Assembly (NCBI GenBank): GCA_965222955.1
Contig: OZ244974.1
Coordinates: 1,536,226 to 1,600,225 of the forward strand
Direction of reading: 5' to 3'
Source: Hyphomicrobiales bacterium
GTDB taxonomy: Bacteria > Pseudomonadota > Alphaproteobacteria > Rhizobiales > CBDCVD01
DNA length: 64,000 nt
The notes under the pieces were generated by a model, which saw nothing but the letters and a program-made list of their open reading frames with translations, was not told where the DNA came from and ran no database searches. Positions 12,966 to 60,874 of the stretch are shown piece after piece (the stretch's first letter is position 1; every line of letters starts with the position of its first letter). A program made the translations under genes and the position numbers.

Positions 12966-14522
12966 ATGACGAAAAACCTCGTGTCTCAGTTTCATCGGCT
13001 CGAAGAGCAGATCACCACGCATTTCCAGGCCCAGCGGGACGCCGAGAATGCGTTGAAAAAAAAGAACAGCGCGCTTCTTGACAATAACCGAGCCCTGGTC
13101 GCCGCCTACGATGCGTTGAGCGAGCGGCTGAAGAACATCAGCACCCGATTGGCAAGCGAGCACAATCGCTTGCTGCAGGCATCGCGCCACGATGGTTTAA
13201 CCGGCCTGCCCGGGCGTGCCGGATTTCACAACTATCTGAAGGAAGCCGCCACAACCGCCAGAAACGATCGCACCAGTTTTGCCCTGATCAGCATCAATCT
13301 GAGGGATTTCAACGCCATCAACACCACGTTCGGCCATGTCGTTGGCGATGGGGTGTTGAAAATCATTGCCGCGCGCCTGGCAAGGGCAATGGCCGCCACC
13401 GGTTATGTGGCGCGCGTCGGCGGCGACGAATTCGCCGTTATCGTCAACGGGATCGCCGATACCCAAACGGCCGAAGACGAAGCCGAACGCATCCTTTCGC
13501 TTATCCGGGCGCCAATCACGTATAAAGAACGAACGCTGCGCATCGGCGCCTCCATCGCCGTCGTGACGTGTCCGCAACAGGCGGACAATGTTCATGATCT
13601 GCAGCGCTTTGCCGATCTGGCGCTACATCGCGCCAAGGCCTCCACGGGCGAGCGGGTGATCGCCTTCAGCCCGACCATGATGCAGGCGCATACGCTACGC
13701 AAATCCATGGGCCGGTACATGCACAGCGCCATGCTCGATGCGATCGATCAGGGAAAGATTCGCATGCTGTTTCAGCCGGTGATCGATCTGACCGACTACC
13801 GGCCGGCGGGTCTTGAGGCGCTCATGCGCTGGCATCACCGCGAACACGGCTGGATCGCGCCGCTTGACGTTCTGGCGATCGCCAACGATACCGGCCTGTT
13901 GCCCATCCTGACCCGCCATATTTTTGAAAAGAGCATTCGCGAGGCGCGCGCCAGTCTGCATAGCGGACAGATCCGCTGGCTGGCGCTGAACCTGACCGCC
14001 AGCGATCTGCACGATCCCGAACTCGGCGATTTCCTTCTCGATTGCCTCAAACGCTATGCCGTGGACCCGCGGCACATAAAGCTGGAGATCACCGAACATA
14101 CGGTCATCGGCGACACCCAGGGCGCCAAACGGGTCATGACACGGCTGGCCGAACACGGTATCCGCTTTGCCATTGACGACTTCGGTACCGGCTATTCGAA
14201 CCTGCTCATTCTCAACCGGCTGCCCTTTCACAGTCTGAAGATCGATCGCTCCTTCATTACCGACATCGCCCGCAATAATCATGTCAGTACTATCGTGAAG
14301 GCCATGATCAATCTTGCCCATGCGCTGAAACTGTCGGTCATTGCGGAAGGGATCGAAGACCGCGGGCAGTTTGACATCGCCCGCTCGCTGGGATGCGAAT
14401 ACGGCCAGGGGTTCCTGTTCGGCCGCCCGCAACCGCTTGCCCATCTGCAAAAAACCAATCTGTTCCGGCGGGCGGCGAGCCATGTCCTGGACCGGGACAA
14501 GCCCGCCCGCCGCTCCGCCTAG
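12966..14522 (+). CDS. GGDEF-EAL diguanylate cyclase/phosphodiesterase with N-terminal coiled coil
   Basis: It contains RVGGDEFAVIV, LEALMRW and DDFGTGYSNL. The protein is 518 aa. The stop TAG is the TA flank of MITE A2. Confidence 0.9.
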   Translation: MTKNLVSQFHRLEEQITTHFQAQRDAENALKKKNSALLDNNRALVAAYDALSERLKNISTRLASEHNRLLQASRHDGLTGLPGRAGFHNYLKEAATTARNDRTSFALISINLRDFNAINTTFGHVVGDGVLKIIAARLARAMAATGYVARVGGDEFAVIVNGIADTQTAEDEAERILSLIRAPITYKERTLRIGASIAVVTCPQQADNVHDLQRFADLALHRAKASTGERVIAFSPTMMQAHTLRKSMGRYMHSAMLDAIDQGKIRMLFQPVIDLTDYRPAGLEALMRWHHREHGWIAPLDVLAIANDTGLLPILTRHIFEKSIREARASLHSGQIRWLALNLTASDLHDPELGDFLLDCLKRYAVDPRHIKLEITEHTVIGDTQGAKRVMTRLAEHGIRFAIDDFGTGYSNLLILNRLPFHSLKIDRSFITDIARNNHVSTIVKAMINLAHALKLSVIAEGIEDRGQFDIARSLGCEYGQGFLFGRPQPLAHLQKTNLFRRAASHVLDRDKPARRSA

Positions 14523-14796
14523 AGCGTGTCCGGTCTTAATAGAAGCAATTTTCGTTTCCCGATTGGCGAGGCGATACCCAGGCTCAAGGCGATCGAAGAG
14601 CGATGTTTATCCATCTCTCGAGAGCGGCTTGGGCGTGGACGTCCGCCAATCGGCAAACCCGAAGGGACGGGCGCTTTTGCACCAAGATGGGCCTTAAGTC
14701 TCTTGCAAATAGCCCCACTATATCCTGCGAGACTTAAGGCCCATCTTGTCGCAAAATCGCTCCGTCAGAATGGTTCTATTAAAACCTGACACGCTC
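14522..14796 (+). mobile_element. Family A MITE (copy 2)
   Basis: The ends are gagcgtgtccggtcttaatagaagc... and ...ttctattaaaacctgacacgctc, flanked by TA/TA. Confidence 0.85.
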
Positions 14797-23360: not shown

Positions 23361-23736
23361 GAGCGTGTCAGGTCTTATACCAGCGGTATTGGCGTTTTGT
23401 ACGCGTTGACTTGTGTATCGTGCTGATAAGACAACGGTTTTAAACCGGGCCAGGAGTCAAACGCAAAGCCCCTTGGTATTAATAGAATTAATTTTCGTTT
23501 CTCGATTGGCGAGGCGGACCACGCCCAAGGCGATCGAAGAGCGATGTTTACCCATCTCTCGAGAGCGGCCTGGGCGTGGACGTCCGCCAATCGGAATCCC
23601 GAAGGGACGGGCGCTTTTGCACCAATATGGGCCTTAAGTCTCTTGAAAATAGCCCCACTATATCCTGCGAGACCTAAGGCCCATCTTGTCGCAAAATCGC
23701 TCCGTCAGAATGGTTCTATTAAAACCTGACACGCTC
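23361..23736 (+). mobile_element. Family A MITE (copy 3) carrying a nested B element, itself inserted in an F element
   Basis: The junctions read ggtcTTA|taccagcgg...ccttggta|TTAatagaa, so TTA is duplicated. The F halves (gggaaaaagtcccca / ggcttcgcctcgatccactttttccc) flank the A copy. Confidence 0.8.
23378..23478. mobile_element. Family B MITE nested in A3
   Basis: It is a 101-bp B unit with a TTA duplication of the A sequence on both sides. Confidence 0.8.
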
Positions 23737-26234: not shown

Positions 26235-26505
26235 GAGCGTGTCAGGTCTTAATAGAATCAATTCTGTTTCCCGATTGGCGAGGCGAACCACGCCCAAGGC
26301 GATCGAAGAGCGATGTTTATCCATCTCTCGAGAGCGGCTTGGGCGTGGACGTCCGCCAATCGGAAACCCGAAGGGACGGGCGCTTTTGCACCAATATGGA
26401 CCTTAAGTCTCTTGAAAATAGTCCCACTATATCCTGCGAGACTTAAGGCCCATCTTGTCACAAAATCGCTCCGTCAGAATGGTTCTATTAAGACCTGACA
26501 CGCTC
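26235..26505 (+). mobile_element. Family A MITE (copy 4)
   Basis: It is 271 bp with both TIRs intact. Its right end supplies the last codons and the stop of metZ. Confidence 0.85.
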
Positions 26506-32248: not shown

Positions 32249-32369
32249 GAGCGTGTCGGATTTGTTAGCTAAGTCATTGATTTTATTGAATTCCTTATTC
32301 TTCCAAAAGACATGTTTCGTAGTAAAATCAACGACTTGGGCAGTTGGCACCCGTAAACCTGACACGCTC
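32249..32369. mobile_element. A-type termini around an unrelated AT-rich 100-bp core
   Basis: The left end is gagcgtgtcgg and the right end is cctgacacgctc. The interior (atttgttagctaagtcattgattttattgaattcc...) has no similarity to other A copies. Confidence 0.55.
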
Positions 32370-37391: not shown

Positions 37392-37511
37392 CTGCGGCGC
37401 GCCTCCGTGGCGCCGGCGAAAAACCGTATCGGTAAATCGGTAATTGGAGCGTGTCATGTCTTGACAGAATTGCTTCTATTAAGACATGACACACTCTAAT
37501 AATAATCCCCT

Positions 37512-37538: not shown

Positions 37539-37544
37539 TAAGGG

Positions 37545-37935
37545 AGTGTTCTGTTGCCAGGTTCTCCATGACCCCGCCCCATCCTTGCAGGGATGGGGGC
37601 TAAAGTTCGAGGCGTCGCGCCTTAAGCGGCGAGACGGACCTCTGCGTAGTTGTCATTTGCAACTATCAAAACGGCCCGATAACGGTGGATACCATACCGA
37701 ACGAAAACGCGTTCTTTACACCTTCGTCGATCCTGTTTCGCCCCCATCACAGACGGGCCTTGTGGCGTGCTGCGCTGCATTGTGCTACAAACCTGTCAGG
37801 TACAGATTTGCGATAAAGCGCAACACGAACCCCGCCGACACAACCAGGGCCGGTCTGTGGTGGAGGCGCCGGGTACCGCCCCCGGGTCCGAACAGCTTAT
37901 TGCAACGGTCATTTATCGTCATAGCCGGCAAGGCC
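37545..37935 (-). ncRNA. ssrA: Two-piece (circularly permuted) tmRNA
   Basis: All elements are on the minus strand. The acceptor piece ends ...ccgggggcggtacccggCGCCTCCACCA, with its 3' end at ~37858. The coding piece starts GGGGGCGAAACAGGATCGACG at ~37744, which allows a G3:U70 pair with the acceptor strand. The tag ORF GCA AAT GAC AAC TAC GCA GAG GTC CGT CTC GCC GCT TAA encodes ANDNYAEVRLAA* (37622-37660). The outer ends are approximate. Confidence 0.88.
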
Positions 37936-38024
37936 GGCACGTGACTATAACATAGTCACGCCCCTTACGCCAGACAATAGGTGATATCGGGACTGACCAG
38001 GAGAGTTTTGCTTTTCTTTGACTA

Positions 38025-38297
38025 GAGCGTGTCAGGTCTTAATAGAATCATTCTGACGGAGCGATTTTGCGACAAGATGAGCCTTAAGTCTCACAGGATA
38101 TAGTGGGGCTATTTTCAAGAGACTTAAGGTTCATCTTGGTGCAAAAGCGCCCGTCCCTTCGGGTTTGCCGATTGGCGGACGCCCACGCCCAAGCCGCTCT
38201 CGAGAGATGGGTCGCCATCGCTCTTCGATCGCCTTGGGCGTGGTTCGCCTCGCCAATCGAGAAACGAAAATTGCTTCTATTAAGACCTGACACGCTC
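38025..38297 (-). mobile_element. Family A MITE (copy 6, inverted orientation)
   Basis: The ends are gagcgtgtcaggtcttaatagaatcattctgacggagcg... and ...ttgcttctattaagacctgacacgctc, flanked by TA/TA. Confidence 0.85.
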
Positions 38298-43519: not shown

Positions 43520-43651
43520 TCGGGGGCGTGGGTTTGCGTTTGTCATGACAACGGGGACACTCGGCTTGCGCCGTGGTTTCCCTACCGATTTCCCTATGGT
43601 ATCGTACCACGGGCGTAAGGTATTGAAAAAAATAAAGTATCCCGTTTTGTA

Positions 43652-43957
43652 TCAAAGCAGAACCAGTTGTTCTGTGCCTGTTTTTTCATGTTTTTTTCGT
43701 TTTCCGACGAGAATCACCATGCGCGCATATTGCTTGTCCGTGATCTGGAATACACGAACGCCACCCTCCTCAGGCACATTACCCCTTAGACGCTCAATAT
43801 GTTTGTCCACAGCCGCCTGACCGCGGCAAATGCGCGTATAGACAGAGAATTGCAGCATATCATACCCGTCTTTTTTCAGAAAGTTGCGGAATTGTGTCGC
43901 GGCACGGCGCTCGGCCTTACTGCCAACGGGCAGATCAAAGATAACAAACAGATACAT
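43652..43957 (-). CDS. cas2: CRISPR-associated endoribonuclease Cas2 (type II)
   Basis: The 101-aa protein reads MYLFVIFDLPVGSKAERRAATQFRNFLKKDGYDMLQFSVYTRIC..., a typical Cas2 ferredoxin-fold N-terminus. Its frame is intact. Confidence 0.85.
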   Translation of the reverse strand: MYLFVIFDLPVGSKAERRAATQFRNFLKKDGYDMLQFSVYTRICRGQAAVDKHIERLRGNVPEEGGVRVFQITDKQYARMVILVGKRKKHEKTGTEQLVLL

Positions 43958-43961
43958 ATAA

Positions 43962-44084
43962 TACTAACGGTCATAAAGAATGACCGTTATCGTTCAAACG
44001 CCACTAAGGCTTACGCGCCATAAGGCGCGGCGGCCGGTCGGCCTTGCCAACGGCTTTATGAGTCAACCACAAGAGCCGTTGGTA
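43962..44084. mobile_element. Family E MITE (123 bp) between the cas1 stop and cas2 start
   Basis: The ends are tactaacggtcataaagaatgaccgtta... and ...ccaacggctttatgagtcaaccacaagagccgttggta. It is flanked by TAA/TAA and starts 4 nt from the cas2 ATG. Confidence 0.8.
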
Positions 44085-44486
44085 TAACGCACCCTTTCGC
44101 CCGTCATGCTACCATGCCTGCGGGAAAAGCAGTTGCCCGCCTCTCTGCTGTTTTACGGCGCGGCGCAAACTGTCGGCGGTTCTCTCGCTCGCATTTAACA
44201 GGGAAAGCTGCTCTCGCTCCAACACGACATCTCTGAAAAGAACACCCGCCATTGCCCGGCGATCATCCTGCACAAGGGCATCGCCTTGCGCGGTACGGTC
44301 CTTGAGATATTCGATTGCATGCCAGTCCACCACCGCCCGATAGGGTTCAATTAAATCATCAACCAGATTGAAGGCGTTCAGATGCCCGTCGTGATGAAGA
44401 CCGACGCAAGGTAAAAAGCCGCATCCGACGACAGCCCGGGCAAGGGCCGCCCGGATACAGGCATACCCATAGTTTAGAGCGTGTCA

Positions 44487-44609
44487 TACTAACGGTCATA
44501 AAGAATGACCGTTATCGTTCAAACGCCACTAAGGCTTACGCGCCATAAGGCGCGGCGGCCAGTCGGCCTTGCCAACGGCTTAATGAGTCAACCATAAGAG
44601 CCGTTGGTA
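44487..44609. mobile_element. Family E MITE nested in the TIR of A7
   Basis: The junctions read gtgTCA|tactaacgg...ccgttggta|TCAggtc, so the 3-bp TCA is duplicated. It is near-identical to the copy at 43962-44084. Confidence 0.85.
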
Positions 44610-44664
44610 TCAGGTCTTAATAGAACCATTCTGACGGAGCGCTTTTGCGACAAGATGAACCTTA

Positions 44665-44765
44665 TACCAAGGGACTTTGCGTGTGACTCCTAACGCAGAT
44701 TAAAACCGTTGTCTTATCAGCACGATACACAAGTCAGCATGTACAAAGCGCCAATACCGCTGGTA
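44665..44765. mobile_element. Family B MITE nested in A7
   Basis: The junctions read aaccTTA|taccaaggg...ccgctggta|TTAagtctc, so the 3-bp TTA is duplicated relative to uninterrupted A copies. Confidence 0.85.
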
Positions 44766-45492
44766 TTAAGTCTCGCAGGATATAGTGGGGCTATTTTCAA
44801 GAGACTTAAGGTTCATCTTGGTGCAAAAGCGCCCGTCCCTTCGGGTTTCCGATTGGCGGACGCCCACGCCCAGGCCGCTCTCGAGAGATGGGTCGCCATC
44901 GCTCTTCGATCGCCTTGGGCGTGGTTCGCCTCGCCAATCGAGAAACAGAATTGCTTCTATTAAGACCTGACACGCTCTAGAAGCGCATTGCGCAGATCCC
45001 CGTCATCGGAACGTTGGAAACCGTCAAAAATCCGACTCCAATAGTAGCGCGCCGCCCGTGCCTCGACATTTTTGGGATCCCCCGATTGCACCCGCGAGGC
45101 CATGGCCGATAATACCGTCTCATCCCCGTGCTGCATTAAATGAAGATTTTCTGCCTGATTGCGGATTTTGGCTTTAACGATGTTTTTCCAGCAACGCTTT
45201 TTGAAAGGCTTGCTCAAAGCCAGTTGCTGGCGCGCCACTTCCGCCTGTGCATGATAGGTATGAAAGGAAAGGGCCAGCCCGCACGGATGGTGACGCTGGT
45301 CGGAAAAGACAATAGGCGTGCCGGCCTCCATACAGGCGGCAATCAGCCGCGCCGAGAGCGTGGCCTTGTTCGTATCAAGGATGATCCAGGCCGCATCTTC
45401 CAGGGGAAAGAACAAGGGCTCGGCTGCTGCATCCCCTTCAAGGTCGCAAACCCTGATACGGCCCTTGTCCAGCGACAAGGACGCCGCCCGGC

Positions 45493-48213
45493 TTATGTGC
45501 AGACCACGCCATGCCATGTACGCTTTTCCGATTTGATTTCACTTTTGCGACCAAGGCGGTCAACCTGAAATTTGCTGAACGAAAGAAGTGTCCGGCAACC
45601 GATACCACGGATCTGCCGTTGCCGGCTGACCTCCTCCGAGAGGGTAATGCTGGCGGTGGAACGGTCGACGCCGCGATAATAGCCCTGAATGATCTCGCCG
45701 TCTCTCTTCGCAACTTCCACCCAGGAAAACGGATAAAGGCTGAACCTGAATGAATACGTCTCGTTCATCTCAGGCCATTCTTTTTCTGTTTTCCCGGCTG
45801 TTGTCGCCTTGTTGGGCGGTTTGGGCCATTGCGCCCGATCGGCAATCTGATGAACATAGATCGGGACGATGTAGAACTTTCCGCTTTTTTCAAAAACATC
45901 AAGGCGAACGATGTTGCCGTTGTCCACATGGCCATTATTGACCTCAAAACCGGAGCGCTCGGTGGTTGGATTTTTTTCCGAGCGCACTGTCACTTTACGG
46001 ATCAAATGGCCGTTATTGCGCCGGGGCAGCTTGTCAGCCGGCGCTCCGGCGTCGAGCCAGTCGGACACTGCCCTGTAGACATCCTTATTGCGATCAGGAT
46101 CCTTTAACCTTTCAGGAGCGGCCCTGGTAATTTTTTCGATCGATTTACGCTCATAGATAATGCGCTTGCCATTCTCGATACGAGACTTTCTGATTGTAGC
46201 CTCGTGTCCTGCGCCGCGCCCGCGCCGGTTTTCACTACGTGCAACCGGTGCGGCGTCGCGGGCGGCAATCACATCTTCGGTAAAGCGCTCCCAGGGCTTG
46301 TCGACCTTGAGTTTTTTTATCGATTGCAGGCCTTTTTCCTCGCGCTCCTGAATGGCTTCGGTCAATTGTCGCAGTTGGCTTTCCGTGCAGACGGCCACGA
46401 TAATTGCATCGACCGCGTGATGGCGGTCATCTTCGATGCGTTTTTTCTTACCATCCTTGTCAGGCAGATATTTGAGCCGCTCAAGTCCCCATTTCTGCCT
46501 GAGTATTGCGATGATCTGGCCGGAACGGGCCCATATGCGCTTGCGCCGCCCGCCTTTCGCTTCTTCGGGCGTGTATATGCGCTCGATTTCCGTATGCGCC
46601 ACCCGTGCGGCGTAACGCATATCGTTCAAATTGCGTGCACTAAAGTTCTTTTTGCGATCGCTGAAATCCTTTATCGTTAAATTGCGGATTTTGAAGCCTT
46701 TTATCTTCTTGTTCTTGTGCATGTTCTTAACCCGCTGCTCAAACATATGCCATCGCTCGCGATTGTGGCCAAGCCATTCAAATGGCGTTTGGTCTTTCTT
46801 GTCGCGATTCTCCTTAACCCGGGCCAGGGCCTTGTTGTGCCAGGAATTGTCATAAGAACGGGAGAGGGGAAGAATATGGTCGATTTCTACCGCGTGTTCG
46901 CCGTCACACAGTTCATTGACGTCAATACACGTCGGCGGATGAGAGTACATACAATATTTATCCTGTTCTTTCCAAAGTTCGTAGCGCATTAGTTCTTGAT
47001 CCAAGCAATGTTCTTTATCGGTTAACTTGCAAAAATTCTTTCGTGCCTCGCGCCGGGCTTTTGTTCTCTTTTCGATACCCTTTCTAATTTCATCACGCGT
47101 TTTGGCGCCTTTGCCAACGTCACGGCCCGGTTCCAAATAAACCGCACCCGGCCGCTCACCCAAATGGTGTATCAGTGCCTTGACTTGTTTTAAGGTCTCC
47201 AGCACGGCGCGTTTGGCGACCGGATTGCTGATATTGGCAAGTTTGGCCTCATTTTGCCGAGTATGATCATAGCCGGCCTGTTTGCAGGCCTTGTCATAGG
47301 TCTTGCCCGCCACCAGACCGGGAAGAATATTGCGTGCCGCTTTTGTCGAAATATGTCCGGCCTTGGAAAATTTGGCAAACGCGCCTGTTTCAACACCCTC
47401 CATGAGTGCTGCCAACACCGCCGGCTCAAGTTCAAGGGTTTCAAGGCCCTGGCGGATACGTTCGATATCCTCGCGAAAGGTCAGCACGTGGGCAATCCGG
47501 TCAAGCTGCGCAGGGGTCTGTACTAGATGGTTCCAGGCGGCCTCACCGATCACCTTATAAAGCGTCGCAGAGCCAAAGGCGCTACCCTTGGAGGCGCGTG
47601 CCAAATCCTCGCCCGTGCTGTCATCACTTACACCAGCAAAGCTGGTATCCTTTGGCAACTTGCATAGCGAAATCAGTTTTTCCCGGGTGATCGATTTTGC
47701 ACCTTTGCCAAAGCCGGTGATCGCCATGGCCAACTCGTCGGGCGTCAAGCGCCGGCCCGAATAGGAGTCATCAACTATCCTGATATTGTTGAGTTTTGAT
47801 AGAAAACGGAACCGCTCAAAAGAATAGGCAAGGCTGCTTGCGCGTTTTTCTTCCGGCTCAAAGGGGCAATTGCCAAGCAGTATTTCCGAATCCTGCAAGG
47901 GTAATTGATCAAAGGCAAAACGGGCGTATTCCTCCTCCATCTCCCGCTCGGCATATTCTGATCCCAGGGCGCGCTGGCGCTTAAACAGTATTTTGACTTC
48001 GCTTTCATGCAAGCACCGAAAAAACGTATGAGAGTAATCCCCATGGCGATTGCGTTTTTTCCCGGCAAATTCCGGATCCCTGGCAAACATCTCGCCAACA
48101 GTGATGTATCTGGCCGCTTTCTCTTTGATCGACGCTGCGCCTTGCAGAACTTTTTTCTTTTCCGATGGCGCGTTGGAGGATTTGTCGGATCCTGTCGGGG
48201 ATACCTTTTCGAA
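45493..48213 (-). pseudogene. cas9: cas9 (type II-C), 5'-truncated; lacks RuvC-I and the bridge helix
   Basis: The open frame is 906 codons, with the first ATG at 48090 (865 aa). It aligns by eye to Neisseria-type Cas9 from ~residue 140 onward. Matching segments are GDYSHTF, RuvC-II (VYLEPGRDVGKG), HNH (VEIDHILPLSRSYDNSWHNKAL), RuvC-III (DDRHHAVDAIIVA) and the PI region (VRLDVFEKSGKFYIVPIYVHQIA). An in-frame TAA at 48214-48216 leaves only 109 nt before the next gene, so no room remains for the N-terminus. Confidence 0.88.
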
Positions 48214-48325
48214 TTAATACCGATTCAATCTGACACGCTCCAGCGCCTGGCCGGGTTCGGGTTTCGCTTTCCGGTCTAACTTGAGGCGGGCGGATTATCC
48301 ATTGTCCATGCGCCGGCCCTGGCGC

Positions 48326-49270
48326 TCACGGTCGCGTTCCAGGCGCAAATGCCCGGCCTTCCCCAGCCTGTTGATCGATTTCCATTTGCCCTGTCAACCA
48401 TGCCCGAAAGGCGTTTGCCGGCGCGTAATCACTCGCCTCGGCCGGGATCATCAGGTAGTAGGCGGATCGGGTGGGAAGTGGCTTGTCGAAGAGAACGACA
48501 AGTTCACCACGCTCAATCTCCCTGGCGATCAGAAAATTCGGCAGCAGCGCAATGCCAATACCGGCGGCGGCGGCCTGGGCTGCGGTGGAAAACTGCTCGA
48601 ATAACAGCCCCGGTCTTTCGGCCGCGCAGGCAAGATGGGCCGCAAACCAGGCGCGCCAGCTTTGCGGGCGACTGGCAAGGTGGAGGAGTGGCAGTTCGGC
48701 AAGATCCTCCAGGCGTTCGATTCTATGGCGCGCGATAAACGCCGGCGACGCAACGGGTACAGATTCCTCGCGCATCAGAAAGGTGGCTTCGGCTTGCGGC
48801 CAGTCGGGCCGTCCAAAGTGAATCGCCCCATGAACGCCTTCGCTGCTCAAATCAAAGGGCGATAGCCTGGTGACGAAGTGGACGGTGATCTCCGGGTTTT
48901 CCTCAAGAAAGGACGGAAAGCGTGGCATCAGCCAACGGGTGCCGAAGGTGGGCAGGATGGCGATATTGAGCTGCCCGGCCCGCGGGTTCATTCTGATGGC
49001 AAGGGATGCTGCCTGAATGCGCGATAGCGCCGGCTGAATTTCCCGGACATAGGCGTGGCCGGCTTCCGTTAAGGTGATTTTCCTGTTTGCCCGGTGAAAC
49101 AGGGCAACCCCCAACTGCTCCTCCAGCGCCCGCACCTGGCGGCTGATTGCCCCTTGCGTAAGGCTCAGCGCACGGGCTGCTGCGGTAAAGCTGCCGGTTC
49201 TTGCCGATACATCGAACGCGATCAACATACTGGTGCTTGGCAGAAACCGTCTCTGATAAGGTTCATCCAT
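48326..49270 (-). CDS. LysR-family transcriptional regulator
   Basis: It has an N-terminal HTH (LIAFDVSARTGSFTAAARALSLTQGAISRQVRALEEQLGVALFHR). It is divergent from the KamA-like gene. Confidence 0.85.
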   Translation of the reverse strand: MDEPYQRRFLPSTSMLIAFDVSARTGSFTAAARALSLTQGAISRQVRALEEQLGVALFHRANRKITLTEAGHAYVREIQPALSRIQAASLAIRMNPRAGQLNIAILPTFGTRWLMPRFPSFLEENPEITVHFVTRLSPFDLSSEGVHGAIHFGRPDWPQAEATFLMREESVPVASPAFIARHRIERLEDLAELPLLHLASRPQSWRAWFAAHLACAAERPGLLFEQFSTAAQAAAAGIGIALLPNFLIAREIERGELVVLFDKPLPTRSAYYLMIPAEASDYAPANAFRAWLTGQMEIDQQAGEGRAFAPGTRP

Positions 49271-49483
49271 TACATTTTGTACTGCATTGATGAGAAGAAT
49301 TCGTTTGTCTCAACGGCTTTCACAATAGACGATTGGCGGCGTTTCGGACAAGGCATATATACCTGAAAGAGCGCACTTTTGGGTTCACACAGGTATCCGA
49401 TGGTCGGCGTAATGTGCGATATCCGCAACACAGATGAGATCTGAAACGAGCGATATGCAGCCAGAAACAGGATAAATGGTAAT

Positions 49484-50920
49484 ATGGCAAGCCCTGAAAA
49501 ATATACCCCTTCCGCCCGGGAAAAGGGATTTCTGGATCAGGTCCGGAACGGAAAATACAATCGCGAAATCATTACCGGATTGAAGAAATTTATCTCCGGC
49601 GATGTCCCCGATGAGATGAAGGACTTCTACAGTCGCAAGGAGTTGGACGCGCTGGTGGCGCTCGATGGCTCAAGGCGCGACGTCCAGAGCCGCATGCCGG
49701 TGAAACTCACCCGGCACTACTTCGCGCAAGCCAGGAACAGCCGGGCGATGCAGGTGCTGATCAAGGCAAGCCCGAAGGAAACCGTAGACCTCGATGGTGC
49801 CGAGGATCCGGGCAAGCAAATGGATTATAGCCCGATTGAAGGGTTAATCCACAAATACGAGTTGGGTCTCATCTACGTCGCCTCCACCTGTTCGGCCCAT
49901 TGCCGGTTCTGCTATCGTGAGGAACTGATTGCCAAAAAGGAGATAGCCCGCCCCGATGGCACCGTAGCGCCAAAAGGCCTGGCGCGGATTGGCGAGATCG
50001 TTGCCTATATCCGCGAGCACAACCGCCTGGTCGCGGGAAACGGTGGCCGGCATCCCGAAACGGGGCGCGAGAAGCTGCGCGAAATCCTGATGTCGGGGGG
50101 CGATCCGATGGTGCTCGGCAACAGGAACATCGCGCAATGGCTGGCGGCGCTGGCCGAGGCCGGTATCGAATCAATTCGTATCGGCACCAAGGAACTGGCA
50201 TTCTTTCCGGATCGCTTTGACGATACCTTTGTCGATATGCTCGACCGGTTCCACGAGACCTATCCCGAAACCAATTTGCGCCTTATGGTGCATTTCAACC
50301 ATCCGGACGAATTTCTGAAAAAGGATAGGGACGGTAACTATATCGAACACCCCCGGGGTGGCCTGGTGTGGCTTGAAAATACCCGTGCTGCGGTGAAGCG
50401 TTTGCGCCGCCGCAACTGGATCAATATGGACAACCAGGCACCGATCATCGCCGATATCAACAATGACGCGGAAGCACTCAGGATCATGCAGCGCGAGTTG
50501 AAGCGCAATGGCATTGAGAACCACTATTTCTTCTGCGGCCGTGATATCGTTGGGCACAAGGCGTTCAACGTGCCGATTGAGGAGGCCTGGCAGGTTCTCA
50601 ATGAATCGCAAAAGGGGCTTTCCGGTGTTGAGGCCCATGCCCGCCTTTCGATCACCCATTACAAGGGCAAGACGGAAGTCGCCGCTGTGACCGATGCGCC
50701 GGTCGCGGGTCTGGCGGGCGCGGAAAATGGTGTCGTGATCTTCAAACTGCTGCGCTCGGCCGCCGATGCGCCGGAGCGAGCCAGGGTGACGATCGTTGGG
50801 CGAAACCCCGAGGCCATCTGGTTCTCCGGCTATGACGATCGGGTGCTGTTCGATGAGGCCGGGCTGTATTCGATGTATGGTATCGGCCTGAGACAGGAAA
50901 AAACGGACAAGGCCGCCTGA
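49484..50920 (+). CDS. KamA-family radical SAM aminomutase-like protein
   Basis: It contains CSAHCRFCYR (CxxxCxxC) and LMSGGDPM. At 478 aa it is longer than canonical lysine 2,3-aminomutase or EpmB. Confidence 0.75.
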   Translation: MASPEKYTPSAREKGFLDQVRNGKYNREIITGLKKFISGDVPDEMKDFYSRKELDALVALDGSRRDVQSRMPVKLTRHYFAQARNSRAMQVLIKASPKETVDLDGAEDPGKQMDYSPIEGLIHKYELGLIYVASTCSAHCRFCYREELIAKKEIARPDGTVAPKGLARIGEIVAYIREHNRLVAGNGGRHPETGREKLREILMSGGDPMVLGNRNIAQWLAALAEAGIESIRIGTKELAFFPDRFDDTFVDMLDRFHETYPETNLRLMVHFNHPDEFLKKDRDGNYIEHPRGGLVWLENTRAAVKRLRRRNWINMDNQAPIIADINNDAEALRIMQRELKRNGIENHYFFCGRDIVGHKAFNVPIEEAWQVLNESQKGLSGVEAHARLSITHYKGKTEVAAVTDAPVAGLAGAENGVVIFKLLRSAADAPERARVTIVGRNPEAIWFSGYDDRVLFDEAGLYSMYGIGLRQEKTDKAA

Positions 50921-50959: not shown

Positions 50960-51011
50960 TTGAATGTGAAAAAGTCCCCCGGCTTCGCCTCGGTCCACTT
51001 TTTCCCAATAA
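50960..51011. repeat. Family F palindromic element
   Basis: The sequence is ttgaatgtgaaaaagtcccccggcttcgcctcggtccactttttcccaataa. Further copies lie at 55362-55413 and 55986-56036, and one is split around A3 at 23345/23739. Confidence 0.6.
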
Positions 51012-51210
51012 TACCAGCGGTATTGGCGTTTTGTACGCGCTGACTTGTGTGTCGTGCTGACAAGACAACGGTTTTAATCTGCGCCGGGAGCCAAACGCAA
51101 GTCCCTGTATACCAGCGGTATTGGCGTTTTGTACGCGCTGACTTGTGTGTCGTGCTGACAAGACAACGGTTGCAAACCAGGTCAGGAGTCAAACGCAAAG
51201 CCCCTTGGTA
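51012..51210. mobile_element. Two head-to-tail family B MITEs
   Basis: The units are 51012-51109 and 51110-51210. The junction reads ...gtccctgta|taccagcgg... Confidence 0.8.
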
Positions 51211-51241: not shown

Positions 51242-51409
51242 GAGCGTGTCAGGTCTTAATAGAAGCAATTCTGTTTTCCGATTGGCGGACGCCCTCGCCC
51301 AAGCCGCTCTCGAGAGATGGGTCGCCATCGCTCTTCGATCGCCTTGAGCGTGGGTATCGCCTCGCCAATCAAGAAACGAAAATTGCTTCTATTAAGACCT
51401 GACACGCTC
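51242..51409. mobile_element. Family A short variant (168 bp)
   Basis: Both ends read gagcgtgtcaggtcttaatagaagcaatt / aattgcttctattaagacctgacacgctc. It lacks the second-hairpin module. Confidence 0.8.
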
Positions 51410-53110: not shown

Positions 53111-53577
53111 TACCAGCGGTATTGGCTTCTTGTTCACGCTGGCTTGTGTATCGTGCTGATAGAGCGTGTCAGTTCTTAAGTGAACATTCTGACGGAGCGA
53201 TTTTGTGACAAGGCCAAGCAAAGTCTCGCAGGATATAGTGGGGCTATTTGCAAGAGACTTAAGGTTCATATTAGATCAGCCTGGCGTTAGCTGTACCCAT
53301 TTTGCCAAGGGTAAAGCTAACGCCATAAAGCTGATCGCCCCGAAATCCATAGCAAAAGCGCCCGTCCCTTCGGGTTTGTCGATTGGCGGGCGCCGACGCT
53401 CAAACCGATCTCATGAGATGCGCCCACATCGCATGTCGATCGGCTCAAACGTGGGTCATCTCGCCAATCGGGAAACGAAAATTGCTTCAGTTAAAAACTG
53501 AAAGGCTCCAAGACCTGACACGCTCCAGGACAGCGGTTTTAAACCGGGTCAGGAGTCAAACGCGAAGCTCCCTGGTA
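53111..53577. mobile_element. Family B MITE split by a family A insertion, starting right after the ALDH stop codon
   Basis: The left part of B (taccagcggtattggcttcttgttcacgctggcttgtgtatcgtgctga) is followed by A9. The right part of B (ggacagcggttttaaaccgggtcaggagtcaaacgcgaagctccctggta) comes after it. Confidence 0.75.
53162..53525 (-). mobile_element. Family A MITE (copy 9, divergent, with an extra internal palindromic insert)
   Basis: The ends are gagcgtgtcagttcttaagtgaacattctgacggagcg... and ...ctgaaaggctccaagacctgacacgctc. The extra segment is gatcagcctggcgttagct...agctaacgccataaagctgatc. Confidence 0.7.
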
Positions 53578-54826: not shown

Positions 54827-55320
54827 CCAGGGGACTTGCGTTTGTTTCCTGACCTGGTTTACAACCGTTGTCTTATCAGCACGACACACAAGTCAGCGCG
54901 TACAACAGCCGATACCGCTGGTATACAGGGGCGTTGCGTTTGACTCCTGGGCCGGTTTAAAACCGTTGCCTTATCAGCACGACACACAAGTCAGCGCGTA
55001 CAAAACGCCGATACCGCTGGTATACAGGGGCGTTGCGTTTGACTCCTGGGCCGGTTTAAAACCGTTGCCTTATCAGCACGACACACAAGTCAGCGCGTAC
55101 AAAACGCCAGTACCGCTGGTATACAAGGGGCGTTGCGTTTGACTCCTGAACTGGTTTACAACCGTTGTCTTATCAGCACGACACACAAGTCAGCGCGTAC
55201 AAAACGCCAATACCGCTGGTATACAAGGGACTTGCGTTTGACTCCTGACCCGGTTTACAACCGTTGTCTTATCAGCACGACACACAAGTCAGCGCGTACA
55301 AAACGCCAATGCCGCTGGTA
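54827..55320. repeat. Head-to-tail array of five family B MITEs (period 99-100 bp)
   Basis: The unit junctions ...ccgctggta|tacaRgggg... sit at 54921, 55020, 55119 and 55219. The array ends with gctggta at 55320, about 180 bp before tRNA-Lys. Confidence 0.85.
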
Positions 55321-55771: not shown

Positions 55772-55884
55772 TACCGCTGGTATTACCTTGCGATTTCCGA
55801 TCATGACCAGCGGTCATGATCGGTCAATATGAATGCCAAATCAGTCCGCCGGGCCGCCCCAGGAACTGATTTGTCCTTATTTTA

Positions 55885-55985
55885 TACCAAGGGGCTTCGC
55901 GTTTGACTCCTGACCCGGTTTAAAACCGTTGTCTTGTCAGCACGATACACAAGTCAGCGTGTACAAAACGCCAATACCGCTGGTA
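55885..55985. mobile_element. Family B MITE inserted in an H+F element
   Basis: The junctions read tatttTA|taccaagggg...ccgctggta|TTAttggg. Confidence 0.8.
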
Positions 55986-56039
55986 TTATTGGGAAAATTA
56001 GACCGAGGCGAAGCCAAGGGACTTTTTCACATTCAACGA

Positions 56040-56815: not shown

Positions 56816-59800
56816 TTACCCTGGGGGGTCACCGCGCAAAGCCTCGCGCACCAGATCGGGACGATAGAGCGTATCGTGGAAATTGTCTATGGACAGGACT
56901 TCCAGGCCACGCACGACGTTGAGGTGTTTGGCGGCCTCCGGGCTTGAGGCATTGAAAAACCCTTCCGGGGTTATCACAAGCCAGGTACCATCTTTAAAGG
57001 CGATAAAGCGGGCCAGTTCCTTACCCGTCGCCACATCCCACAGGCGCGTCGTATCATCACCAGAGCCGGTGAGAACGGTGCGTCCGTCGGGGGAAAAGGC
57101 AATGCTCCTCACGTTTACGGAATGCCCCTCAAAGCGCTGGATTTCCTTACCCGTAGCCGCGTCCCACAGCCGGGCGGTGTCGTCCCCGGACCCGGTGAGA
57201 ACGGTGCCCCCGTCGGGGGAAAAGGCAACGCTGTTCGGGTTTCCGGAATGCCCTTCAAAGCGCCGGATCTCCTTACCCGTAGCCGCGTCCCACAGCCGGG
57301 CGGTGTCGTTCCAAGAGCCGGTGAGCATGGTGCGCCCGTCGGGGGAAAAGGCAACGCTGAACACAGCACCGGCATGCCCTACAAAGCGCCGGATCTCCTT
57401 ACCGGTGGCCGCGTCCCACAGCCGGGCGGTCTCGTCCTCGGCCCCGGTGAGAACGGTGCGGCCGTCGGGGGAAAAGGCAACGCTGGTCACATCGCGGGAA
57501 TGCCCTTCAAAGCGCCGGATCTCCTTGCCGGTGGTCGCGTCCCACAGCCGGGCGATGTGGTCCCAAGAGCCGGTGAGAACGGTGCGTCCGTCGGGGGAAA
57601 AGGCAACGCTGGTCACATAACCGGAATGCCCTTCAAAGCGCCTCAGTTCCTTACCCGTGACCGCGTCCCACAGCCGGGTGGTGTCGTCTACCGAGCCGGT
57701 GAGAACGGTGCCCCCGTCGGGGGAAAAGGCAACGCTCCGCACAGTATCGGCATGCCCTTGAAAGCGCCGAATCTCCTCACCGGTGGCCGCATCCCACAGC
57801 CAGGCGGTGTTGTCTACCGAGCCGGTGAGAACGGTGCGGCCGTCGGGGGAAAAGGCAACGCTGAACACAGCACCAGCATGCCCTTCAAAGCGCCGGATCT
57901 CCTTACCGGTGGCCGCGTCCCACAGCCGGGCGATGTTGTCAAACGAGCCGGTGAGAACGGTGCGGCCGTCGGGGGAAAAGGCAGCACTGGACGCAGGACG
58001 GGAATGCCCTTCAAAGCGCCGGATCTGCTTACCCGTGGCCGCGTCCCACAGCCGGGCGGTGTCGTCCCAAGAGCCGGTGAGAACGGTGCGGCCGTCGGGG
58101 GAAAAGGCAACGCTGGTCACGTCATAGGCATGCCCTTCAAAGCGCCGGATTTCCTTACCGGTGGCCGCGTCCCACAAACGGGCGGTGTTGTCCCAAGCGC
58201 CGGTGAGAACGGTGCGCCCGTCGGGGGAAAAGGCAACGCTGGTCACGTCATAGGCATGCCCTTCAAAGCGCCGGATTTCCTTACCGGTGGCCGCGTCCCA
58301 CAAACGGGCGGTGTTGTCCCAAGCGCCGGTGAGAACGGTGCGCCCGTCGGGGGAAAAGGCAACGCTGGACACAACATGGGAATGCCCTACAAAGCGCCGG
58401 ATCTCCTTACCGGTGGCCGCGTCCCACAGCCGGGCGGTGTTGTCTACCGAGCCGGTGAGAACGGTGCGCCCGTCGGGGGAAAAGGCAACGCTGGTCACAT
58501 CGCGGGAATGCCCTTCAAAGCGCCGGATCTCTTCACCGGTGGCCACGTCCCACAGCCGGGCGGTGCTGTCCCGGGATCCGGTGAGGACGGTGCCCCCGTC
58601 GGGGGAAAAGGCAACACTGGACACATAATCGGCATGCCCTTCAAAGCGCCGGATCTCCTTACCGGTAGCCGCGTCCCACAGCTGGGCGGTGTTGTCCCAA
58701 GAGCCGGTGAGAACGGTGCGCCCGTCGGGGGAAAAGGCAACGCTCCACACACCTTCGGCATGCCCTTCAAAGCGCCGGATCTCCTTACCCGTGGCCGCAT
58801 CCCACAGCCGCGCGGTATTGTCCATAGAGTTGGTAAAAACGGTGCGCCCGTCGGGGGAAAAGGCAACACTGGACACATAATCGGCATGCCCTTCAAAGCG
58901 CCGGATCTCCTTACCCGTGGCCGCGTCCCACAAACGGGCGGTCTTGTCCATAGAGCCGGTGAGAACGGTGCCCCCTTCGGGGGAAAAGGCAACACTGTAC
59001 ACCCCATCGGCATGCTCCACAAAGCGATCGGCATGCCCCACAAAGCGCTGGATCTCCTTACCCGTAGCCGCGTCCCACAGCCGGGCGGTGTTGTCCCGGG
59101 ACCCGGTGAGAACGGTGCCCCCGTCGGGGGAAAAGGCAACGCTCCAAACATTATCGGCATGCCCTTCAAAGCGCCGGATCTCCTTACCCGTGGCCGCGTC
59201 CCACAAACGGGCGGTCTTGTCCATAGAGCCGGTGAGAACGGTGCCCCCTTCGGGGGAAAAGGCAACACTGTACACCCCATCGGCATGCTCCACAAAGCGA
59301 TCGGCATGCCCCACAAAGCGCTGGATCTCCTTACCCGTAGCCGCGTCCCACAGCCGGGCGGTGTTGTCCCGGGACCCGGTGAGAACGGTGCCCCCGTCGG
59401 GGGAAAAGGCAACGCTCCAAACATTATCGGCATGCCCTTCAAAGCGCCGGATCTCCTTACCCGTGGCCGCGTCCCACAAACGGGCGGTCTTGTCCATAGA
59501 GCCGGTGAGAACGGTGCCCCCTTCGGGGGAAAAGGCAACACTGTACACCCCATCGGCATGCTCCACAAAGCGATCGGCATGCCCCACAAAGCGCTGGATC
59601 TCCTTACCCGTAGCCGCGTCCCACAGCCGGGCGGTGTTGTCCCGGGACCCGGTGAGAACGGTGCCCCCGTCGGGGGAAAAGGCAACGCTCCAAACATTAT
59701 CGGCATGCCCTTCAAAGCGCCGGATCTCCTTACCCGTGGCCGCGTCCCACAAACGGGCGGTCTTGTCCATAGAGCCGGTGAGAACGGTGCCCCCTTCGGG

Positions 59801-60874
59801 GGAAAAGGCAACACTGTACACCCCATCGGCATGCTCCACAAAGCGATCGGCATGCCCCACAAAGCGCTGGATCTCCTTACCCGTAGCCGCGTCCCACAGC
59901 CGGGCGGTGTTGTCCCGGGACCCGGTGAGAACGGTGCCCCCGTCGGGGGAAAAGGCAACGCTCCAAACATTATCGGCATGCCCTTCAAAGCGCCGGATCT
60001 CCTTACCCGTGGCCGCGTCCCACAAACGGGCGGTCTTGTCCATAGAGCCGGTGAGAACGGTGCCCCCTTCGGGGGAAAAGGCAACACTGTACACCCCATC
60101 GGCATGCTCCACAAAGCGATCGGCATGCCCCACAAAGCGCTGGATCTCCTTACCCGTAGCCGCGTCCCACAGCCGGGCGGTGTTGTCCCGGGACCCGGTG
60201 AGAACGGTGCCCCCGTCGGGGGAAAAGGCAACGCTCCAAACATTATCGGCATGCCCTTCAAAGCGCCGGATCTCCTTACCCGTGGCCGCGTCCCACAAAC
60301 GGGCGGTCTTGTCCATAGAGCCGGTGAGAACGGTGCCCCCTTCGGGGGAAAAGGCAACACTGTACACCCCATCGGCATGCTCCACAAAGCGATCGGCATG
60401 CCCCACAAAGCGCTGGATCTCCTTACCCGTAGCCGCGTCCCACAGCCGGGCGGTGTTGTCCCGGGACCCGGTGAGAACGGTGCCCCCGTCGGGGGAAAAG
60501 GCAACGCTGGTCACCCAAAAGGCATGCCCCAATTGGGCAAAGACGCGAATGTCGTCCGCGGCCGCTTGTGCAATGAGGGCATTGCCGGTGCCATTTGAGC
60601 CACCGGATGCCGCTATCAAATATTTATTATTCACCCAGGCTTCCTCGCCTGAGGCAAGACGCACCCGGCTCCAGTCCCCGTCGCGGGCCAACTCCTCCAC
60701 CACGGCGCCCGGGGGCAGCACATCGACTTTATCGTACTCCGGTCCCGGCCCTTGCCGCACGTTCAACTCTGTATCCGGCCTGACCTTGTATGTCGCGGCA
60801 AAAGCGGCCTCGCCCCACAACAATAGAGCGGCAACAAAACAAACAATAAAACCAATAACACGCCGTTCACGCAT
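56816..60874 (-). CDS. Secreted SH3-domain + 27x WD40-repeat protein (1352 aa)
   Basis: It has a signal-like N-terminus MRERRVIGFIVCFVAALLLWGEAAFAA. A bacterial SH3-like segment follows (YKVRPDTELNVRQGPGPEYDKVDVLPPGAVVEELARDGDWSRVRL). After that come 27 units of the form GH..V.SVAFSPDG.TVLTGS.D.TARLWDAATGKEIRRFE. The large antisense ORFs are shadows. Confidence 0.85.
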   Translation of the reverse strand: MRERRVIGFIVCFVAALLLWGEAAFAATYKVRPDTELNVRQGPGPEYDKVDVLPPGAVVEELARDGDWSRVRLASGEEAWVNNKYLIAASGGSNGTGNALIAQAAADDIRVFAQLGHAFWVTSVAFSPDGGTVLTGSRDNTARLWDAATGKEIQRFVGHADRFVEHADGVYSVAFSPEGGTVLTGSMDKTARLWDAATGKEIRRFEGHADNVWSVAFSPDGGTVLTGSRDNTARLWDAATGKEIQRFVGHADRFVEHADGVYSVAFSPEGGTVLTGSMDKTARLWDAATGKEIRRFEGHADNVWSVAFSPDGGTVLTGSRDNTARLWDAATGKEIQRFVGHADRFVEHADGVYSVAFSPEGGTVLTGSMDKTARLWDAATGKEIRRFEGHADNVWSVAFSPDGGTVLTGSRDNTARLWDAATGKEIQRFVGHADRFVEHADGVYSVAFSPEGGTVLTGSMDKTARLWDAATGKEIRRFEGHADNVWSVAFSPDGGTVLTGSRDNTARLWDAATGKEIQRFVGHADRFVEHADGVYSVAFSPEGGTVLTGSMDKTARLWDAATGKEIRRFEGHADNVWSVAFSPDGGTVLTGSRDNTARLWDAATGKEIQRFVGHADRFVEHADGVYSVAFSPEGGTVLTGSMDKTARLWDAATGKEIRRFEGHADYVSSVAFSPDGRTVFTNSMDNTARLWDAATGKEIRRFEGHAEGVWSVAFSPDGRTVLTGSWDNTAQLWDAATGKEIRRFEGHADYVSSVAFSPDGGTVLTGSRDSTARLWDVATGEEIRRFEGHSRDVTSVAFSPDGRTVLTGSVDNTARLWDAATGKEIRRFVGHSHVVSSVAFSPDGRTVLTGAWDNTARLWDAATGKEIRRFEGHAYDVTSVAFSPDGRTVLTGAWDNTARLWDAATGKEIRRFEGHAYDVTSVAFSPDGRTVLTGSWDDTARLWDAATGKQIRRFEGHSRPASSAAFSPDGRTVLTGSFDNIARLWDAATGKEIRRFEGHAGAVFSVAFSPDGRTVLTGSVDNTAWLWDAATGEEIRRFQGHADTVRSVAFSPDGGTVLTGSVDDTTRLWDAVTGKELRRFEGHSGYVTSVAFSPDGRTVLTGSWDHIARLWDATTGKEIRRFEGHSRDVTSVAFSPDGRTVLTGAEDETARLWDAATGKEIRRFVGHAGAVFSVAFSPDGRTMLTGSWNDTARLWDAATGKEIRRFEGHSGNPNSVAFSPDGGTVLTGSGDDTARLWDAATGKEIQRFEGHSVNVRSIAFSPDGRTVLTGSGDDTTRLWDVATGKELARFIAFKDGTWLVITPEGFFNASSPEAAKHLNVVRGLEVLSIDNFHDTLYRPDLVREALRGDPPG
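58883..60513. repeat. Six tandem 273-bp units inside the WD40 gene, identical by eye
   Basis: The string gcccttcaaagcgccggatctccttacccgtggccgcgtcccacaaacgg recurs at 58888 and 59161, and the pattern continues every 273 bp. Each unit encodes two WD repeats (42 + 49 aa). An additional 126-bp duplication lies at ~58131-58382. Confidence 0.85.

Follow-up and report, generated by a model that had tools for sequence, protein, structure and literature searches.

A truncated type II-C cas9 in a decaying CRISPR-Cas locus of a Hyphomicrobiales bacterium is best read as young debris

Translation of the minus strand of the window (the whole 64-kb stretch of DNA analyzed here) revealed a long open frame derived from cas9. 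As given in the original prediction, this frame holds 906 sense codons between an in-frame TAA (48214-48216, minus strand), which forms its upstream limit and sits in the flank of a tracrRNA remnant, and the stop codon at 45493-45495. The cas9-derived sequence begins at ~48193 and thus occupies 45493-48193 on the minus strand (~900 codons plus the stop). It corresponds approximately to orthologue residues 151-1046 and covers REC from its second quarter, RuvC-II, HNH, RuvC-III, and the WED/PI region. Pfam domains Cas9_a (REC), HNH_4, and RuvC_III were identified in the remnant, and the PADLOC Cas9 profile (901 positions) is matched only from position 162 onward. When aligned with 15 full-length orthologues (1045-1076 aa, 54-61% identity), the frame proved colinear to the extreme C-terminus, where the WED/PAM-interacting region is kept and aligns with its relatives without gaps to the final residue (...RTWHGVVCT). 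The same colinearity of REC, RuvC-II, HNH, RuvC-III, and PI was found with type II-C Cas9s of the NmeCas9/GeoCas9 kind (6JDQ, 8UZA), and the matches to solved type II-C chains had E-values of 1e-95 to 1e-88. The start of the frame had been placed at roughly residues 140-200 of a Neisseria-type Cas9. This estimate is right, since query residue 47 aligns with residue 186 of NmeCas9, and query residue 12 is matched by 8uza_A residue 133. The opening ~6-7 codons (F-E-K-V-S-P-T), however, do not belong to cas9 and represent the antisense of the tracrRNA terminator remnant.

The orthologue alignment also confirmed that RuvC-I and the bridge helix are missing. The RuvC-I motif GLDIGIASCGW (GLDIGxxSxGW, with the catalytic Asp) is absent from the remnant, the arginine-rich bridge helix RGQRRRLRRRR has no counterpart in it, and the start of REC is also gone, bringing the total loss to the first ~150 residues. 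A tblastn search of the 64-kb window with the N-termini of six orthologues located these ~150 residues, including RuvC-I, nowhere else, and a displacement of the 5' part of cas9 by a large insertion was rejected for the window. The catalytic residues of the remaining domains are retained, namely E361 (RuvC-II), D445/H446 and N469 (HNH), and H598/H599/D602 (RuvC-III), all of which are conserved with 28 other Cas9s. The first possible start of the remnant is the ATG at 48088-48090 (minus strand), with no ATG, GTG, or TTG in frame between 48213 and 48090, and it yields an 865-aa product (P0001) that gene callers list and that is present in public protein collections. Rather than a newly made start, this ATG encodes an internal Met that is conserved within the 'GEMF' motif. 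No Shine-Dalgarno sequence could be read ahead of it, and a search of 47800-49500 for a sigma-70-like promoter returned none.

Downstream of the remnant, cas1 (44109-45517, minus strand) has a 25-nt overlap with the cas9 stop, which the orthologous locus L005 also shows, and is split by a composite MITE at 44477-44977. The family A backbone of this element (271 nt, TA duplication) carries two nested insertions, a family C unit of ~104 nt and a family B element of 123 nt with a TGA duplication, and it is 98.2% identical to its nearest copy at 9968-10238. In-silico removal of 44477-44979 (503 nt) restored a 301-aa Cas1 that is colinear with the L005 Cas1 (299 aa; 300 codons with the stop). The adjacent cas2 (43652-44107, minus strand) is broken at codon 8 by a 123-nt family B MITE at 43962-44084 (TACCAACGG...CCGTTAGTA, TTA duplication), leaving a residual ORF of 101 aa from the internal Met9 (43652-43957); excising the element in silico gave a 109-aa Cas2 (MTGERVRYMYLFV...), again colinear with that of L005. 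Apart from these insertions, no lesion was found in cas1 or cas2. A lone CRISPR repeat, ACGATACCATAGGGAAATCGGTAGGGAAACCACGGC (43570-43605, minus strand), survives 46 nt past the cas2 stop, the repeat type of the locus being GGGAAATCGGTAGGGAAACCACGGC. A search of the whole window allowing up to three mismatches revealed no second repeat, and no spacers are left. Orthologue arrays begin at the same position and comprise ~10 repeats in L002 and ~29 in both L004 and L005, while the array of L001 is cut by the contig end. The orthologous loci point to an ancestral order of tracrRNA (antisense, upstream), cas9, cas1, cas2, and CRISPR array. On the upstream side of the remnant lies lysR (48326-49270, minus strand), which encodes a LysR-family regulator with Pfam HTH_1 and LysR_substrate domains in the same orientation as cas9. 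Downstream of lysR on the minus strand there is no clear terminator, so that transcription from lysR may read through.

Nucleotide-level mapping placed the deletion junction at 48193/48194, within the terminator hairpin of the native tracrRNA. On the minus strand the junction joins GAAAAGGTATCCCCGAC to AGGATCCGACAAA, of which the left part is the complement of the conserved tracrRNA 3' end and the right part is cas9 from codon ~151. The tracrRNA remnant, GTCGGGGATACCTTTTC (48194-48210, plus strand), consists of the 3' arm of the terminator stem and the U-tract, and the 16-nt motif AARAGGTATCCCCGAC matches it exactly and has no other match in the window. The same sequence forms the 3' end of an antisense tracrRNA upstream of cas9 in L001, L002, L004, L005, and L011, and a diverged form of it ends the tracrRNA of L003. 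A covariance model (R1) describes this conserved tracrRNA, upstream of and antisense to cas9, in 19 related Cas9 loci, 13 of which lay outside the training set of the model and gave a tracrRNA in the same arrangement. Since it combines an anti-repeat with a terminal hairpin showing compensatory changes, the predicted tracrRNA is, on this comparative evidence, genuine and conserved in this Cas9 clade. Within the window, R1 detected no tracrRNA, and an anti-repeat search with up to three mismatches was also negative. An 8-mer in the junction flank, AATCGGTA, also occurs in the CRISPR repeat and near 37440, and this sharing was judged to be at chance level.

The interval equivalent to the deletion measures ~735 nt in both L001 and L005 (locus coordinates). 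The endpoints of the deletion were established by comparison with the orthologous loci, and because the last ~17 nt of the tracrRNA are fused directly to cas9 codon ~151, we infer that one event of ~0.73 kb, running from the tracrRNA terminator stem into cas9, produced the present arrangement. Such a deletion would have taken the tracrRNA, sparing only ~17 nt at its 3' end, along with the promoter and 5' UTR of cas9 and 150 of its codons, which encode the RuvC-I catalytic motif, the bridge helix with its arginine-rich sequence, and the first part of the REC lobe.

A different origin of this deletion had been proposed, in which a MITE-associated event deleted the cas9 5' end with all that lay upstream of it and left a solo family A terminus as its scar. 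The 11-nt terminus, CTGACACGCTC, lies at 48230-48240 (plus strand), with lysR following 85 nt beyond it, as had been stated. It is an exact match, extended to 14 shared nucleotides by a CAG flank that also occurs at the copies at 51399 and 53515, and the window contains 22 copies of it, where 0.8 would be expected, in agreement with its earlier assignment as a genuine family A end. With TIRs GAGCGTGTCAGGTCTTAATAGAA..., a length of ~271 nt, a TA duplication, and many copies, family A, for which no transposase was identified, resembles the TA-duplicating MITEs that are non-autonomous derivatives of Tc1/mariner or IS630-type elements, a putative superfamily assignment based solely on the TA duplication and on general knowledge. 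Unlike such elements, the copy beside the remnant is a mere 11-nt terminus: the inner TIR is missing, CA flanks it in place of a TA duplication, and no partner end lies ~270 nt away. The rest of the element is absent, as was originally noted. Where the inner TIR adjoining the terminus reads …TTCTATTAAGAC in family A, the interior here reads ...CGAATTAATACCGATTCAAT, and when the match was extended inward (48210-48229), just 9 of the 20 bases agreed with the inner TIR, which was treated as no match.

The solo state of this true family A end suggests that some rearrangement shortened a MITE near the locus, and MITEs have demonstrably inserted in cas1 and cas2. However, the terminus is separated from the real junction by 36 nt and is therefore no marker of the break. 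Of these 36 nt, 17 are the 3' end of the native tracrRNA, still in its original place and orientation, and 19 are flank. A single deletion anchored at the MITE would also have taken the tracrRNA terminator. Thus, the loss of both the cas9 5' end and the sequence upstream of it is upheld, whereas its association with a MITE is not, and we consider a MITE-anchored deletion, which the position of the cas9 break contradicts, very improbable.

The persistence of the long frame bears on the age of the remnant. Single-base changes in the cas9 frame would produce a stop in 4.1% of cases, and with modest indel rates the chance that the frame is still open drops under ~10% once neutral divergence reaches 1%, and under ~1% once it reaches 2%. 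Tajima relative-rate tests against 14 orthologues revealed no acceleration (p 0.39-0.99). The remnant carries 17 private substitutions at otherwise invariant sites, comprising 3 junction codons that are not cas9, 3 cysteine positions, and 11 others; these 11 compare with 12-15 in similarly deep-branching orthologues, and in view of this lack of excess, private substitutions were rejected as a sign of decay. The losses of three nearly invariant HNH cysteines (C424S, C465R, C468E) were likewise discarded, as the cysteines are also absent in all 14 outgroup Cas9s and in 8uza_A. The cysteine cluster is therefore a derived trait of the sister clade, and the remnant HNH resembles the outgroup Cas9s and 8uza_A in being without the three extra cysteines of the nearest clade. 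The nearest full-length relative of the remnant shares only 61% identity. A search of 5.8 billion protein clusters found no relative above this value, a metagenome scan for close relatives was empty, and GuaA and GuaB of the same genome are also singletons at 90% identity.

Taken together, we find it very probable that the remnant is a cas9 pseudogene, inactivated recently within a type II-C CRISPR-Cas locus whose every component is in decay. Young debris is the best reading of its long open frame, and as such the finding is an ordinary one. In support of this notion, removal of the insertions restores perfect Cas1 and Cas2 frames, and the decay is therefore recent; this, together with the near-identity of the MITE backbone to its closest copy and the still open frame, bears out the suggestion of very young debris made in the original prediction. 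Separately from the cas9 deletion, one MITE entered cas1 and another codon 8 of cas2, and the array was reduced to one repeat. The open frame probably persists because there has been too little time for stops or frameshifts to build up. Established knowledge of Cas9 structure and function further indicates that neither RNA-guided cleavage nor nicking would be expected of the remnant, because the locus provides no tracrRNA and no crRNA, and the protein would have no bridge helix and only two-thirds of the split RuvC fold. As far as can be read from the sequence, there is also no sign of adaptation to a new role, with no promoter-like site and a conserved internal Met as the sole start.

The original prediction had also raised the alternative of a protein retained for a nuclease-independent or HNH-only role. 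In its fuller form, the truncated protein, although devoid of RuvC-I and bridge helix, would be expressed and selected for a guide-independent, HNH-only, or regulatory role. Such retention would agree with the undamaged frame of ~900 codons, the intact HNH, RuvC-II, and RuvC-III catalytic residues, the lack of both surplus private substitutions and rate acceleration, and the listing of the remnant as a protein by gene callers. However, a long undamaged frame, intact catalytic residues, and an unaccelerated rate are equally expected of a very young pseudogene and are therefore non-discriminating, and youth fully accounts for the intact frame. The partners through which a Cas9 acts are lost or broken (the tracrRNA deleted, the array down to a single repeat, cas1 and cas2 interrupted), and the native cas9 promoter was deleted with no substitute detected and no Shine-Dalgarno sequence ahead of the ATG at 48090. 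Because the bridge helix, which binds RNA, and the first strands of RuvC's RNase H fold both lie in the missing segment, established Cas9 structural knowledge gives no expectation of correct folding or HNH activation. Structure prediction would not separate the two readings, as AlphaFold-type models recover a family's fold from co-variation and are no test of whether a truncated protein is stably folded. We found no positive support for a retained function and regard it as very unlikely. Slimmer still is the chance of one particular route, in which a lysR read-through transcript would be translated from the ATG at 48090 to give a protein with a guide-independent role such as DNA binding or HNH-dependent nicking. 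A mis-assembly of this MITE-dense genome, with the true locus intact, is hardly credible: near-identical repeats abound in the region and CRISPR arrays readily collapse in short-read assemblies, but the cas9/tracrRNA junction lies outside repeated sequence, the source contig of 3.39 Mb is apparently a finished chromosome, and the MITE insertions are flanked by clean target-site duplications.

As a recently dead locus, the present case retains the type II-C gene order of cas9, cas1, cas2, and array and the 25-nt cas9/cas1 overlap of its orthologues. It differs from type II-C systems in that its Cas9 is without the first ~150 residues and the locus is without tracrRNA and spacers. A precedent is given by decaying type II-C loci described in 'Ca. 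Endomicrobium trichonymphae', where cas9 is split and the adjacent array lost, and were read as reflecting relaxed selection for defence (PMC5174739). Disruption of cas9 and loss of the array are common to those loci and the present one. Here, however, a 5' deletion that also took the tracrRNA is found, and MITEs rather than frameshifts interrupt cas1 and cas2; moreover, the 3.39-Mb contig comes from an alphaproteobacterial host, in contrast to the reduced endosymbiont genome of Endomicrobium.

The main value of this locus is that it offers a clean, fully resolved case of the death of a type II-C CRISPR-Cas system, whose pattern combines the joint loss of the tracrRNA and the cas9 5' end, MITEs in cas1 and cas2, and a single remaining repeat, with all surviving frames open. 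The 865-aa product in the public collections, with its Cas9 domains, could be taken during genome mining for a Cas9 that is compact or otherwise unusual, and the integrity of an ORF is, by itself, a poor test of function for young pseudogenes. For this alphaproteobacterial Cas9 clade, the comparison with orthologous loci further defines a conserved tracrRNA that lies upstream of cas9 in antisense orientation.

Re-examination of the minus-strand cas9-derived frame confirmed the factual description given in the original prediction, including the 11-nt string beyond it, the flank of that string and the spacing to lysR. The minus strand stays open over 906 sense codons, between the TAA at 48214-48216 and the stop at 45493-45495, while the earliest possible start codon, the ATG at 48090, yields a predicted product of 865 aa. 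The Pfam matches of the remnant comprise the Cas9 REC segment, HNH_4, and RuvC_III, and the match to the PADLOC Cas9 profile begins only at profile position 162/901. In the public protein collection, the product is a singleton (P0001, on a 3.39-Mb contig), and no relative closer than 61% was found in the searched collections. Its closest full-length relatives are Cas9s of 1045-1076 aa with 54-61% identity, and those with retrieved contigs belong to Robiginitomaculum, Rhodovibrionaceae, Hyphomicrobiales, and unclassified alphaproteobacterial MAGs. Alignment with 15 full-length relatives revealed that the remnant is colinear with them through the last residue, and that nothing in it corresponds to the RuvC-I motif (GLDIGIASCGW), the arginine-rich bridge helix (RGQRRRLRRRR), or the beginning of REC. 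Against solved structures, frame residue 47 corresponds to NmeCas9 residue 186, and residue 12 to residue 133 of 8uza_A. The absent N-terminus was not found at any other place in the window. The remnant is a type II-C Cas9 by descent, but lacks the defining N-terminal features.

The locus is flanked by guaB-rsmB-guaA and lysR on an alphaproteobacterial chromosome, as indicated by the alpha_tmRNA and SAM-alpha riboswitch found in the window. At 90% identity, GuaA, GuaB, LysR, and further proteins encoded in this genome are each a singleton among ~15 billion public proteins, so that the source represents an alphaproteobacterial lineage without sequenced close relatives; the GTDB species representatives that the Cas9 scan reached do not include it. 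The window also holds a 1352-aa ORF (56816-60874, minus strand) with 27 WD40 repeats (Pfam WD40, 1070 bits), the DNA of which consists of tandem repeats with a 126/273-nt period and 85-90% identity, suggesting recent amplification or homogenisation.

Comparison with the orthologous loci located the break. All of them carry, 150-300 nt upstream of cas9, a conserved block that reads AAAGAGGTATCCCCGACG...hairpin...CGCCGGGTAAACCTTCAATTGG...CTTACCGTGG.TTCCC.ACCGATTTCCC on the cas9-sense strand. Its opposite strand is the tracrRNA, in which an anti-repeat is followed by internal stems, a terminal G+C hairpin with compensatory changes, and CUCUUUU; the anti-repeat is complementary to the crRNA if the latter is transcribed antisense to the cas genes. 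This RNA of ~100 nt lies on the minus strand of the fetched loci L001 (8490-8592), L002 (1541-1643), L003 (264-366), L004 (9368-9466), L005 (9248-9348), and L011 (9405-9507). A covariance model built on six loci, R1, recovered this RNA from another 13 Cas9 loci outside the training set (L006-L010, L012, L014-L017, L019, L020, and L022), in each case antisense to cas9 and just upstream. The tracrRNA is therefore a feature of this alphaproteobacterial type II-C clade as a whole, and its orientation implies that the crRNAs must be transcribed antisense to the cas operon.

Across the junction, the minus strand of the window reads ...ATTCGAAAAGGTATCCCCGAC|AGGATCCGACAAATCCTCCAACGCGCCA.... The left side (48210-48194) matches the conserved tracrRNA 3' end exactly and has no second match in the window when two mismatches are allowed (0.08 expected), and the right side codes G-S-D-K-S-S-N-A-P, which aligns with the orthologues' K-S-E-K-A-S-N-A-P at about residue 151. 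This places the junction at 48193/48194, within the terminator stem of the tracrRNA; the codons F-E-K-V-S-P-T of the 906-codon frame belong to antisense tracrRNA and flanking sequence and are no part of cas9. Relative to L001 and L005, ~735 nt are missing, an interval made up of the body of the tracrRNA, the intergenic promoter region, and 150 codons. Spanning the junction is an imperfect direct repeat (ATCCCCGAC / ATCCGAC), which, we infer, is compatible with a microhomology-mediated deletion.

The original prediction had instead attributed the truncation to a MITE-associated deletion, on account of the 11-nt string CTGACACGCTC at 48230-48240, which has a CAG flank and is followed 85 nt later by lysR (HTH_1 and LysR_substrate). 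This string is an authentic end of a MITE family of ~271 nt that makes TA duplications, and it occurs 22 times in the window versus 0.8 expected, mostly in convergent pairs. All that remains at 48230 is the outer 11 nt (or, with the CAG flank included, 14 nt in common with two other copies), with no inner TIR, TA duplication, or partner end. Simple counting gives a chance expectation of ~5e-5 for the terminus in the 110-nt spacer, which makes the solo terminus a genuine relic. It is nevertheless separated from the cas9 break by 17 nt of native tracrRNA 3' end plus 19 nt of flanking sequence; hence, it cannot be the scar of the truncating deletion and records, at most, a second rearrangement, independent of the first, on the side of lysR. 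A MITE-associated origin of the break is not supported.

The MITE family in question (family A; TIR GAGCGTGTCAGGTCTTAATAGAA) is present at approximately one copy per 6-8 kb of the window (9968-10238, 14522-14796, 23361-23736, 26235-26505, 38025-38297, 44477-44977, 51242-51409, and 53162-53525). Its copies are 93-98% identical to one another, several contain nested elements, and no transposase for the family was seen. The 11-nt terminus is also found in a 121-nt element with a different interior (32249-32369), in a mini-element of ~50 nt with two TIRs back to back (~37407-37457) beside the tmRNA gene (37540-37976), and as another solo terminus abutting a full copy (9954-9964). Family C is a repeat unit of ~99 nt that occurs in tandem arrays of 2-5 units or singly within family A MITEs (54828-55320, 51011-51198, 55882-55988, and 44662-44768).

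Damage extends to the remaining components of the system. As in L005, cas1 and the cas9 stop overlap by 25 nt; in the window, cas1 is split by a 503-nt insertion, consisting of the 501-nt element at 44477-44977 and one copy of the TA duplication. The insertion has a family A backbone with a nested family C unit of ~104 nt and a family B MITE (44486-44610, TGA duplication) nested in the right TIR. Its removal yields a 301-aa Cas1, colinear with that of L005 (299 aa; 300 codons with the stop) and with the NALLNYGY motif across the rejoined joint. Similarly, a second family B copy (43962-44084, TTA duplication) disrupts codon 8 of cas2; without it, a 109-aa Cas2 (MTGERVRYMYLFV...) colinear with that of L005 is obtained. 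The two family B copies, 123-nt elements with termini TACCAACGG...CCGTTAGTA and 3-nt target duplications, are 98% identical. A single 36-nt CRISPR repeat (43570-43605), matching the orthologues' repeats, lies 46 nt past the cas2 stop. Orthologue arrays begin at an equal distance from cas2, with ~10 repeats in L002 and ~29 in both L004 and L005, the count in L001 being incomplete as the contig ends within the array. No second repeat or anti-repeat was found in the 64-kb window; a weak R1 match on the minus strand at 43540-43605 (12.5 bits, E 0.16), covering the solo repeat and the next 30 nt, is probably due only to sequence common to repeat and anti-repeat. L002 additionally carries, upstream of cas9 (141-703), a second array with an unrelated 36-nt repeat (GTTGCGGTTGGCCCACGTTTTCTAATCAGCTATAAC). 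The locus in the window has none of what a working type II system requires.

So long an open frame could represent either young debris or a retained protein. The surviving catalytic residues (E361, D445/H446, N469, and H598/H599/D602) are intact. The remnant carries 17 private substitutions at otherwise invariant sites, or 11 when three junction codons and three cysteine positions are set aside, versus 12-15 in similarly deep orthologues. Loss of these three nearly invariant HNH cysteines was considered as a sign of decay and rejected, as 14/14 outgroup Cas9s and 8uza_A also lack them. No acceleration was detected by Tajima relative-rate tests, in which 14 orthologues were compared using 14 outgroups (p 0.39-0.99). 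By these results, the lineage spent nearly all of its history as a working Cas9; they fit very recent loss and continued selection alike.

Retention of the truncated Cas9 as a functional protein is nevertheless highly improbable. The native cas9 promoter is deleted, and no sigma-70-like site was found in 47800-49500 to replace it; the sole start codon encodes the conserved internal Met of 'GEMF', with no Shine-Dalgarno before it. None of the tracrRNA, crRNA, Cas1, and Cas2 survives in intact form. Also missing are the bridge helix, which is central to guide-RNA binding, and RuvC-I, from which the RNase H fold takes its initial strands and its catalytic Asp. HNH activation depends on the guide-target duplex. 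Young debris, in turn, was borne out by the state of the locus. In the frame, 4.1% of single-base changes would yield a stop; with indels assumed at 5-10% of the substitution rate, the neutral-survival estimate leaves a 3-10% chance of the frame still being open at 1% divergence and <=1% at 2%. Since, in addition, the MITE in cas1 shares 98.2% identity with its closest copy, and Cas1 and Cas2 show no lesion beyond their insertions, the whole locus looks to have lost its function over a brief, recent period, and no special explanation is therefore required for the open cas9 frame.

Type II-C loci in decay, with cas9 disrupted and the array lost, have been described, for example in Endomicrobium (PMC5174739), which offers a precedent for the present locus. 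The opposite type, truncated at the 3' end, is seen in an alphaproteobacterial MAG (L072, 9614-10423, on a 2.65-Mb contig), where residues 22-292 are all that is left of a related Cas9. The remnant described here is a well-resolved yet ordinary young cas9 pseudogene.
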